This document shows, one piece after another, positions 1 through 3,000 of a stretch of DNA of 43,579 nt. Each line of letters starts with the position of its first letter. Position 1 is the stretch's first letter. Position numbers: made by a program. Source of the DNA: a virus; the IMG/VR virus record IMGVR_UViG_3300035446_000023, positions 1-43,579 of that record; one strand, written 5' to 3'.

Positions 1-3000
1 AAACGTAAGTGTTTGATTCTGTTGGCGCGGGAGATTGCGCAAAAGAGCGGATTTCTGAGCGTGAAAACTGGCCGAAAGCCGCGCGGCACTAGGCGTTGAG
101 CCTGATCCGTGCGGCGTCCCAGGCTTTGATTCCGTATAGGCGCAAGTGCTTGATTTTACAGTGCGTTTCCATCCTCTCCAATTCCTCCCCAAAACCTCGC
201 CAAAACTCAGTCGCGGATTATGCCACGTCGATCCACTCGGCGCCCCGGCTGTCACGGTAGAGCGCGGTCATCGCTGCCGACTTGTGGCCGAGCAGCAATT
301 GCGGATCTCGTCCCTCAGCTGCGTGCAGGCGTGCCGCCAGCGAACGCATCTCGTGGAAGGTCGGCGGGCTCGCTCCGAACTCTATGCCGGTGCGGTCCCG
401 CGCTGCTGCAAATGCGCTGGTCAGCGTGTCCAGCATGATCGGCATTCCCGGCGTCGCGCGACTCACGGTGCGACTGTGATGCACGAGATGTTTGGACACT
501 ACCGCATCACGACAAGCTTTAACCACCTCGCCCAGCTCGAGCCCGAGCGATTCCAGGCGCAGCTTCGTGCTGATCCGCAGCCTGGCGCCGGTCTTCGCCT
601 GAATGATGTGCAGATGCTCGTCGTACACATCCTTGAACAGCATCGCGGCGATATCATCCCGCCGCTGGCCGGTCAGCACTGCAAGCTCCATTGCCCGCTT
701 CAGCCATGGCTGCTTGGCCTCCGCGTAGATCGCCTTCCATAGCTCCAGGGTTAGCCGTTCGCGCTTGACCTTCACTTTCGCGGCCCGCGTCACTTCGACC
801 GGGTTGTCCTTACGCCATCCCGCCGCTATCGCCTCGCGCATCAGGTCGCTCAGCAATGAGCGCATGGCCCGCGCCATCTGCGCCTTGCCCTCATCCGTGA
901 AGGTCTTCAGATAGCCGGCAACCTCAAACGTCCCTATGCTTGCCGTGTCGAGGTGCCCAAGCGCCTCGCTCAGGCGATTCAGCCTCATGCGCACGGTTTC
1001 CTTGCTGCGGTCAGACACGTCGCGCTCTGCATACAGCTTGCGGTATTCATCGATCCATTCCGAGAGCCTCCGAACCGGTGCAACTGCTATGCGCTCGACC
1101 AGTGCCGGCTGCATCTTCGCGCCGGCATGGTTGGCGTGCACCGCCTCCCGCACGGCCTGCGCCTTGTCTGTGCCGAGCCCATACCACTTCCCAGACGACG
1201 GGTCGCGGTAGCTGTAATAGGTGACGCCGTTCCTGCTGTCCGTCTTGCGGTACAGGTTCGGCGGCAGGTCTTTCGAACCGGTCTTACGCGGCCTTGGCGC
1301 CATGTCGATCCCTCGCGATGCGCCCGGCAAGCGTGCCTGGCTCGATGTACTGTGCGTCTGGCTCAACATAATAGCTGCGCCCGTGCTTCACCGGGGCGGG
1401 GAAAATCTTCGCCTCCCGCGCCCACCGCCGCAGCGTGTTGAGCGTTGGCACCGGATCGAAGTTCGCTTCCGCCCATTTCTCAAGGCTCAATTTCATCTGT
1501 CACCCCTCCAATTCCCGGCAGCCGCAGTAACTGCAACGCTTGCCGATCACGTTCTTCACGCATGTATTCGTGCGCTCGCCTTCTTCCTCTATCCAGACTT
1601 CCATGCGGATTCGCTGCATGTCGGACTTGGCGAGGATCTCAAACTGGCGCTTCTGCTCCTGCTCCGGCAGGCGCTTGAATGATTGCCAAAGGCTCATGCT
1701 CACCCCCTCACCGTTACGCCGGCTGCTTCGATGGCGGCGCGGCAGTCGTCAAGTGCAAGGTTGTAGCCTGCGCCCTGATATTGCTCAGCGCTTGGCCCCA
1801 TCTCGCTATCTGGCCCTCCATTGACCGATAGGTCGCGTGCCGGCAGTTTAATCACCAGAGCCGCACGGGATGCTTTCCACGCCATCCAGCATCTGTTCGT
1901 CTCATGGCAGGCGTAGCCATCTCCGAACCGGTGCAAGTCCATCTCCTGTGTGTTCATATTGTCTCGCCACCACGCCTCGAACTCTGCTATCGCCTTGTCT
2001 GTGTGCTGCATCTCTATCTCCTGCTGCGTGTGGGGTTAGGCGGTCATCGCGGCTCGGATGAAGACTTCCGCCGCTTTAGCATTGATGGCGTTTCCGTAGG
2101 CGCGCAGTCGTCCCACTCGGGAGGCAGCCCCATGAGCCAACGGGAATGTGCCGGGTTCAACTGGCCGCCACTTTCCATCCCGGCAGAAGAGCCAATCAGC
2201 ATCTCGCCAGAGGCCGTTAACCGGGCCGGCATCGCTATCGCCGCCGCTGCGGCCAAGTCTTGCGGGCAACCCTTCCGCTCGATTTCCCGCAAAGCCCCAT
2301 CCAAGGTTCTGGCGTTCTTCTCGCCGTCCGCTGCGCGCGGGGTCGGCCAAGCAGCCAATAGCGCAAAGTCGTTCAGGTTCGAACCGTGGCGCGTTGTCCC
2401 CATTGCCCGTTTTGCCTGCCCGCCGCCCGATCCGTCTTGAGCCTGCGGCGTTGGCCAGCCAGTAGAGCCTGTCGCGGATGTGCGGGGCACCGACGCCCGC
2501 AGACGGAAACGGGACGGCCCCGAAGGCGTACTCCATTGCTTCCATGTCAGCTTGTACAAGGTCGAGCCAAGCGTCTGCGTCCTTGCTCGCAACCTGCTCT
2601 CCAGCGACGATTGCAGGTCGGCACTCTTGGATGAGCCAATGGAAGCTTGGCCAGAGATGCCGCTCGTCAGCAAACCCAGCTCCTTTGCCTGCCGCGCTGA
2701 AAGGCTGGCATGGGCAACTCCCGGTCCATACAGGAAGGTCATCTGGCCATCCGGCTCTACGAAGAGCGAGGGACCAGACTCCAACGCCTGCAAAGAAGTG
2801 GCATTGCGTGTAACCGGCGAGGTCTGCAGGGCGAACATCCTCGATACTCCTTTCGTCTACGTCGCCAGGCGCGATGTGGCCGGCTGCGATCAAGTTGCGG
2901 AGCCACTGCGCCGCGTATGGGTCGATCTCGTTGTAATACGCAGGCATATCTCTACCTCCCCGCCGACTCTCGCCGGCAGGCTGTGTGTTTGGGTGGGGTT

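Follow-up and report, generated by a model that had tools for sequence, protein, structure and literature searches.

A second reading frame under selection within a phage C5-cytosine DNA methyltransferase gene, and its probable role as a nested recognition subunit

Can one stretch of phage DNA, read in two frames of the same strand, encode both chains of a single C5-cytosine DNA methyltransferase? The question is raised by a viral record of the IMG/VR database (IMGVR_UViG_3300035446_000023, positions 1 to 43,579; this whole stretch of 43,579 nucleotides is called the window below). In it the open reading frame (ORF) of gene A, the large subunit of a C5-cytosine DNA methyltransferase (2036..2947, minus strand, ATG start, 303 amino acids), contains a second ORF, gene B (2044..2838, minus strand, ATG start, 264 amino acids), which lies in the +1 frame of A and is proposed to encode the small, recognition subunit. 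A first-pass annotation of the sequence had called both ORFs and taken B for the nested second polypeptide of the enzyme, in the style of M.EcoHK31I. Both sets of coordinates were borne out, and all the motif strings quoted for A and B were found in the respective translations, including YGNAI in A. The proposal itself was supported by the comparative tests described here, and we consider it quite probable that the locus is an M.EcoHK31I-style two-polypeptide C5-cytosine DNA methyltransferase, with one DNA stretch read in two frames.

The start of B is located 109 nt 3' of the start of A, which puts B in the +1 frame: codon position 2 of B is position 3 of A, and position 3 of B is position 1 of the next A codon. 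B lies wholly within A, on the same strand and in a different frame, and this layout was kept in all 84 loci of a comparison set composed of 80 IMG/VR loci (A identity 54–78%), three distant phages and the window. The guanine-plus-cytosine (GC) content by codon phase, which had been counted by hand in the first-pass annotation, was reproduced (0.70/0.62/0.62 over 2039-2461). The second-position dip seen in nine other long genes of the window (about 0.63/0.44/0.78) is missing here, as had been claimed, and an ordinary pattern is found at the two ends of A (0.61/0.42/0.75 for residues 1-36 and 0.61/0.48/0.70 for residues 281-303).

A long second frame may be expected in DNA of 63% GC, and frame B could then be a non-functional by-product whose conservation comes from A only. 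In the window by itself, 20 of 200 synonymous-codon shuffles of A (10%) gave a +1 ORF at least as long as that observed, and the openness of frame B in the window alone is weak evidence for a real gene. Across the 84 loci, the +1 frame was open for 230-366 codons in every case and the +2 frame never for more than 125. Since CTG-A and similar codon junctions make stops, the +2 frame is a poor control for the +1 frame, and synonymous-shuffle nulls were used in its place. The mean length of the +1 ORF was 301 codons observed versus 160 in the shuffles, and among the loci with 51-57% GC not one of the 200 shuffles was as long as the ORF observed; that B is open in 84/84 loci, those at 51-55% GC with 0/200 such shuffles included, argues against a by-product. 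No stop-broken B frame was encountered in any of these homologous loci, interruption by stops being a check that had been named at the outset. A nested pair of open frames was also present in Salmonella phage epsilon15, Vibrio phage Baybae, Escherichia phage K1ind1, Rhodobacter phage RcBigEagle and Klebsiella phage BUCT541; the methylase coding sequence (CDS) annotated in these records is that of the A frame, except that K1ind1 has both ORFs annotated, and B is matched by tblastn in the +1 frame.

Long by-product frames do arise at this locus. Two long antisense ORFs, 2480-3055 (plus strand, 191 amino acids) and 1904-2440 (plus strand, 178 amino acids), are located opposite the methylase gene, and similar ones are found in epsilon15, Baybae and BUCT541. 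The ORF at 2480-3055 is codon-aligned with A and is open because A avoids TTA, CTA and TCA, and it was set aside as a by-product. That codon-aligned antisense ORFs of 100-370 codons arise purely in this way is a point in favour of the by-product explanation of B, as is the finding that B residues 1-44 are no more conserved than a by-product.

Selection on the two frames was measured zone by zone, as nucleotide identity by codon position on an alignment of 77 non-identical genes and, in a second test, as +1-frame amino-acid identity in 400 distant pairs (A identity <0.72) compared with synonymous shuffles. A residues 1-36 (2840..2947), which lie upstream of B, constitute a single-coding control region. 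Nucleotide identity in it was about 0.8-0.9, 0.86-0.94 and 0.37-0.55 at the first, second and third positions of A codons, and +1 identity over A2-36, outside B, was at the null (0.34, null 0.31, A identity 0.75). The same ordinary single-coding pattern characterized A residues 1-80 as a whole (third-position identity 0.37-0.59, first and second 0.76-0.94), though residues 37-80 overlap B. The overlapping part, B residues ~2-44 (2708..2835, over A motif I), is open without B-specific constraint: A third-position identity was 0.43-0.59, like the control region, and +1 identity over A38-80 was 0.37 (null 0.33, A identity 0.75).

Downstream of it the picture changed. In a first dual-coding zone, where A motifs IV-VIII lie over a conserved module of B (A residues 81-160, 2468..2707), A third-position identity was raised to 0.57-0.79 and +1 identity was 0.55 against a null of 0.28, with A identity at 0.61; over A121-150 the conservation of B exceeds that of A. 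In a second zone, where conserved C-terminal segments of A and B overlap (A residues 241-280, 2108..2227, with the motif IX-like element of B at 2113-2160), the dual constraint was strongest, with A third-position identity of 0.81-0.96 and +1 identity of 0.77 (null 0.34, A identity 0.75). A-only constraint returned over A residues 281-303 (2039..2107; third-position identity 0.63, 0.44, 0.34), which hold motif X (YGNAI, 2084-2098) and a C-terminal helix, and within which the stop codon of B is located (2044-2046). Between the two dual-coding zones lies a variable zone (A161-240, 2228..2467) with WxTP repeats in B (WPTP at 2446-2457 and 2338-2349) and an open, unconserved linker in A. Conservation is low overall in this zone, and the WPTP segments follow the phase of B (position 2 > position 1 > position 3), the most conserved A codon position there being the third; B is therefore the selected frame in the variable middle.

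Variation at the synonymous sites of A is thus suppressed exactly where B is conserved, in agreement with what had been predicted for a gene read in two frames. The prediction of constraint in both frames held in zones and not uniformly: the first ~44 residues of B are unconstrained, and in mid-gene A is a passive linker. In two zones B identity is about twice the null, in the variable zone conservation is in B phase, the ATG and Shine-Dalgarno (SD) motifs of B are conserved (see below), and repeat modules have been gained and lost in B while both frames stayed intact. Taken against these observations, the chance-ORF reading is effectively excluded, and we regard it as the least probable of the alternatives. 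As expected of a dual-coding gene pair, the loci display suppressed synonymous variation, openness of both frames and a conserved start of its own for the inner frame, and B is very probably a genuine, selected coding sequence.

The start of B was examined in the same 77 genes. In the window the ATG (2836..2838, minus strand) is formed by A codon D37 (GAT) and the G of V38, and it is preceded at a distance of 8 nt by a Shine-Dalgarno-like AAGGAG (2847..2852, minus strand) contributed by A codons E32-R33-S34 (GAA AGG AGT). A B-frame ATG was present at the aligned start position in 63/77 loci versus 28.9 expected from synonymous shuffles, with a second ATG four codons downstream in 33/77, and an SD-like 4-mer was located at -20..-5 from the start in 37/77 versus 12.5 expected from such shuffles. 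B-frame stops occurred at ~5% per codon over A1-36 and at A38 in 6/77 loci, and were absent from A39 on. The conserved ATG, the SD motif and the distribution of stops point to independent internal initiation of B, and argue against a B that is reached only by frameshifting.

Frameshifting would provide the product in another way: ribosomes would start in A and slip into the +1 frame after motif VIII, and a single chain with motifs I-VIII, the WxTP array and motif IX would result, with no separate full-length B. The order of elements along the DNA, I-VIII in A, repeats and motif IX in B and motif X in A, mimics a canonical single chain, and two metagenomic contigs (L134 and L187) carry such a fusion of the A N-terminus with the B C-terminus through a 1-nt frame change in the linker. 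Both contigs nevertheless retain, each in its original frame, the C-terminal part of A and the N-terminal part of B, a pattern that suggests an indel or a sequencing error. In addition, over A81-160, which lies upstream of where a shift would be useful, B is more conserved than a by-product would be, and its frame is open from A38 on, behind a conserved ATG with an SD motif. The A frame was open through the unconserved linker in 77/77 loci versus 21% of B-synonymous shuffles, from which it follows that A is read through to its conserved C-terminus, where A-phase constraint is found. On these observations, no search having been made for a slippery site, a frameshift fusion is a very improbable explanation, which we place between the chance ORF and the unrelated overprinted protein considered below.

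Gene A has the features of a catalytic subunit. Its match to PF00145 (E 6e-11, 42.8 bits, cut-off 22) is restricted to residues 73-167, and phrog_363 ('DNA methyltransferase') spans its whole length (E 3e-92). The homologues of A numbered at least 8,000, all carrying PF00145. By phmmer, A 73-164 aligned with M.HhaI 74-169 (motifs IV-VIII), with PCQ, ENV/EQV and RER/RDR matched; motif IV (P-C-Q), motif VI (E-N/Q-V) and motif VIII (R-x-R) are thus present in order. The AlphaFold2 (AF2) model of A was confident at residues 1-169 and 286-303, with a predicted local distance difference test score (pLDDT) below 50 at 170-285, and showed the motif X helix at A 282-302 (pLDDT ~80). The best Foldseek hits of the model were M.HhaI, M.HaeIII, DNMT2 and DNMT1, with E values down to 1.5e-6, so that both the class I methyltransferase large-domain fold and the C-terminal motif X helix are found in A. 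A structured small domain, that is, a target recognition domain (TRD), with motif IX was not found between motifs VIII and X of A: matches to Pfam and the Protein Data Bank (PDB) stop at about residue 167, A161-240 is unconserved, and a conserved segment of ~40 residues follows before the motif X helix.

Two peculiarities of A chains were seen besides. The N-terminus of the window's A seems permuted, with a motif II/III-like stretch (AYYNEIDPYAAQWLRNL ... VDERSIEDV) placed before motif I (window 2798-2947, A residues 1-50). Motif I itself is FFAGVGVW at residues 51-58, only ~20 residues from motif IV versus ~55 in M.HhaI, and AF2 places a beta-alpha-beta unit ahead of the motif I strand. The wider group of loci with the EWLMGFP motif, described below, has the canonical motif order, unlike the window's A, as exemplified by L105. 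The other peculiarity is an extra insertion of ~15-130 residues within the conserved C-terminal segment of some A chains (P0162, 469 amino acids; P0214, 505 amino acids; L085; L001), located between ...PL.DG... and ...RVGRLR.YGNAI and of helical look in P0162 and P0214.

The product of B is a basic protein of 27.8 kDa with an isoelectric point of 9.9 (23.2 kDa when counted from residue 45). The open, unconstrained residues 1-44 are followed by a conserved module at residues ~45-127, which includes LRASVPRTS and is overprinted on A motifs IV-VIII, and by WxTP modules (WSTP102, WPTP128 and WPTP164 in the window). Homologues of B hold 0-7 WxTP motifs (mode 3) at a median spacing of 36 amino acids, the number of modules being the main difference between them, and the C-terminus, with the element LNPxxSRWLMGxPxEW, is invariant. 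B therefore holds much more than its motif IX-like element, having a conserved N-terminal module and a WxTP repeat array in addition. It was matched by phrog_31772 (E 6e-38) and phrog_1008 (E 4e-37), both labelled DNA methyltransferase, whereas comparison with Pfam and NCBIfam gave no meaningful family. That B has homologues of its own, another point that the first-pass annotation had singled out, was amply confirmed: at least 7,985 were found in a collection of 5.8 billion proteins, none of them with a Pfam domain, and a profile of 40 B homologues found 16,206 representative clusters at E ≤ 1e-3 in another database, 7,077 of them at E ≤ 1e-30. No locus examined had B anywhere but within a methylase gene.

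The C-terminal element of B resembles motif IX, for example that of M.HhaI, LHPRECARVMGYPDSY. The only hhalign match of the B profile on M.HhaI pairs B 227-244 with HhaI 274-291, which is motif IX. The motif IX proposed earlier for B is a resemblance by eye and not a demonstrated match, the pairing having an hhalign probability of 0.1% (E 0.49).

From these elements the following scheme may be put forward. Ribosomes starting at 2947 would make A, composed of the S-adenosylmethionine-binding and catalytic large domain (motifs I, IV, VI and VIII), the linker, the segment of ~40 residues and, last, the helix of motif X. A separate start at the internal AAGGAG-N8-ATG (2838) would yield the basic B in the +1 frame, the first ~44 residues of which look dispensable. 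B would bind A and provide the small domain that A lacks, with target recognition and motif IX, like the beta subunit of M.EcoHK31I, and the holoenzyme would methylate phage DNA, probably as an escape from host restriction. The function of B, that of the subunit which brings recognition and motif IX to a heterodimeric methylase, is one that we infer, and we hold it to be likely. Joint constraint peaks in the overlap of the two conserved C-terminal segments, and AF2 could place neither A 170-285 nor B alone though both are conserved, as is expected of pieces that fold together.

How far this arrangement extends was surveyed by searching IMG/VR for DNA encoding EWLMGFP, a variant of the C-terminal motif of B, which gave at least 120 loci (L087-L206). 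Among the matches listed, 97 of 121 motif occurrences had the motif ORF in the +1 frame of an ORF with P-C-x-x-x-S and E-N/Q-V, and these methylase core ORFs were quite different in sequence from the window's A. Of 19 unclassified occurrences, several were nested on inspection, with A chains of canonical order ending in ...RVDRLK.LGNAVVP. The motif was in the methylase frame in only three of the matches listed, and in two of these (L134 and L187) the genes are nested, the linker having undergone a frame change of 1 nt. These two were considered as natural single-chain relatives and rejected, the old-frame A C-terminus and the B N-terminus being still readable; they may be assembly errors or natural frameshift variants. 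In the low-GC locus L130 (around position 7285), a complete methylase ORF (motifs I to X, ...LKGLGNAQSP...) is followed by an in-frame module like the C-terminus of B (...TPTT...AEWLMGFPIG), a natural fusion that links the A and B parts.

The survey bears on the explanation that B is real and translated but acts outside the methyltransferase, as an overprinted gene with, e.g., a regulatory or anti-defence role. That B is nested in a C5-methylase core across very divergent families (at least 97/121 sampled loci) is hard to explain without a functional link. The in-frame fusion in L130 speaks in the same direction, as do the strongest joint constraint at overlapping C-terminal segments neither of which was modelled alone, and M.EcoHK31I as a direct precedent. 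Such a protein would be in keeping with a B that has no Pfam family and no significant match to a solved structure or to motif IX, with an A that, having motif X and a conserved C-terminal segment, might need no partner, and with Pseudomonas phage PMG1, where the B frame is intact and the A frame apparently interrupted. We judge an unrelated overprinted protein to be unlikely, and still the most probable of the three alternatives to the two-polypeptide methylase.

Several points weigh against the two-polypeptide methylase and were set against the evidence in its favour. The loci are phylogenetically related, and a count such as 77/77 does not stand for so many independent trials; the contrast between zones is robust despite this, given the control zones inside the same alignment. 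A degenerate motif IX could be present in the C-terminal segment of A, and A would then perhaps be complete alone. The hhalign pairing of B with M.HhaI given above is not significant, and the B profile searched against PDB sequences gave no hit at E ≤ 10. Pfam searches with a chimera of A(1-169), B(128-244) and A(281-303) and with two C-terminal pieces scored no better than A did by itself. B modelled alone by AF2 on a 40-sequence alignment had a pLDDT of 46.8, and the model was uninformative and unusable for a fold search. The likeness to M.EcoHK31I is one of architecture. Finally, the open frames, the purifying selection on both of them in defined zones and the conserved start of B are direct observations on the aligned loci, whereas we infer that B is translated, that it associates with A, and what its role is.

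Annotation has in general recorded one of the two genes. It had been supposed that gene callers report only the longer frame, and A alone is indeed reported in most phage records; B alone is reported in L209 and PMG1, and both in K1ind1. In L209 (3001-3906 of a Logan SRR1749891 contig) the caller reported the B frame only (301 amino acids, no Pfam match) and no methylase, which shows that in automatic annotation the choice of one frame rules out the other. In PMG1 (L207, 565-1433) B is intact with 281 amino acids and is named in RefSeq 'DNA methyltransferase, similar to putative Mte8-like protein [K1ind3]'; only a C-terminal piece of 164 amino acids is listed for the A frame, which may reflect a pseudogenised A or a sequencing error. 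The label 'Mte8-like protein', used for Guernseyvirinae phages, is a database annotation only, and is applied to the B frame of K1ind3, of PMG1 and of phages related to them.

Two further loci depart from the usual form. In Klebsiella phage BUCT541 (L085, 955-2331) the B ORF is without its usual stop and runs on for 458 amino acids into an HNH/endonuclease VII-like domain (CxxC...HxDH...CxxCN), which is annotated as a separate hypothetical protein in the same frame. In L086 (1401-1817; 'Dunaliella viridis virus SI2', a caudovirus record) a deletion remnant was seen, in which an A' of 138 amino acids joins the N-terminus to the C-terminal segment without the catalytic core, and a nested B' of 104 amino acids keeps one WPTP module and the motif IX-like end.

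Well beyond the family of the window, nesting thus seems to be usual among phage C5-methylases. A broader statement can be made only tentatively, namely that a very large superfamily of phage and prophage C5-methyltransferases normally has a nested +1 gene, for the most part unannotated, and that the recognition subunit B, an expandable WxTP array that ends in motif IX, overprints the linker of A. If this were true, few same-strand overlapping gene pairs of prokaryotic viruses would be as long (~0.8 kb) or as widespread, and the short 'TRD-less' phage C5-methylases in databases would be half-enzymes. With one frame per annotation, methylase predictions and REBASE-style inference of specificity for thousands of phage and prophage enzymes may rest on half a protein. 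Long same-strand overlaps in bacteria and viruses have been disputed, and the pair in the window provides a clean case, with single-coding, dual-coding and B-only zones adjacent to each other. By gaining and losing WxTP modules, a phage could quickly change or widen the specificity of its methylation against host restriction. A C5-methylase that is naturally heterodimeric, with recognition on a modular chain, would also be a ready scaffold for split or retargeted methyltransferases, a use to which M.EcoHK31I has already been put (PMC2836561).

The surroundings of the gene were compared with known phages. The window's early region resembles Pseudomonas phage PS-1, with 85.6% identity over part of the first 9 kb, and the corresponding early region of PS-1 carries RecT-like, exonuclease and HNH genes. 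The window gene looks like an orphan phage methylase, no search having been made for a partner restriction enzyme gene.

As a type of system, the locus has a known counterpart in M.EcoHK31I; less expected are the scale, the regularity and the zone-wise division between frames. M.EcoHK31I, from E. coli HK31, recognizes YGGCCR. Its alpha chain holds motifs I-VIII, as well as X, and the presumed TRD, the beta chain, which carries motif IX, is encoded entirely in another frame within alpha, and activity needs the two chains together; beta can be started from internal Met codons and can do without its first ~42 residues (PMC2836561; PMC3404938). The window agrees with this arrangement in that B is nested in A on the same strand, that A holds the catalytic motifs and motif X, and that B holds a motif IX-like element; the unconstrained first ~44 residues of B recall the dispensable ~42 residues of beta. 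Unlike M.EcoHK31I, where the TRD is placed on alpha, the region between motifs VIII and X of the window's A is mostly linker, and the conserved, modular, basic WxTP sequence is on B. A homologous nested pair is formed by ORF29 and ORF28 of Escherichia phage K1ind1 (A 274 amino acids, B 230 amino acids, same strand, +1), both of which are annotated 'DNA methyltransferase' in NC_041897.1, by database annotation only. A literature search found no paper on nesting in phage methylases, and no analysis of or experiment on a pair of the K1ind1 type.

M.AquI from Agmenellum quadruplicatum (CYCGRG) is likewise a two-polypeptide C5-methyltransferase, split in the variable region (PMC3404938). Its layout, an end-to-end split into I-VIII and IX-X in which the small subunit has both IX and X and the genes are not nested, was not found in the window, where motif X is on the large chain (GNAI in frame A, 2084-2098) and the small chain is overprinted. 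The multispecific C5-methyltransferases of Bacillus phages SPR, phi3T and rho11s have a variable region made of tandem exchangeable recognition modules. The 0-7 WxTP modules of ~36 amino acids in B suggest a comparable array, the role of WxTP being speculative; unlike B, the Bacillus phage enzymes are single chains with their modules in frame between motifs VIII and IX. Long same-strand overlaps that encode two proteins and show suppressed synonymous variation are also known from viruses of the phiX174 type and from the tymovirus replicase/p69 pair (PMC8227390). Such overlaps in small viruses are usually lineage-restricted and join unrelated functions, whereas the pair described here is found across many phage families and probably encodes one enzyme.

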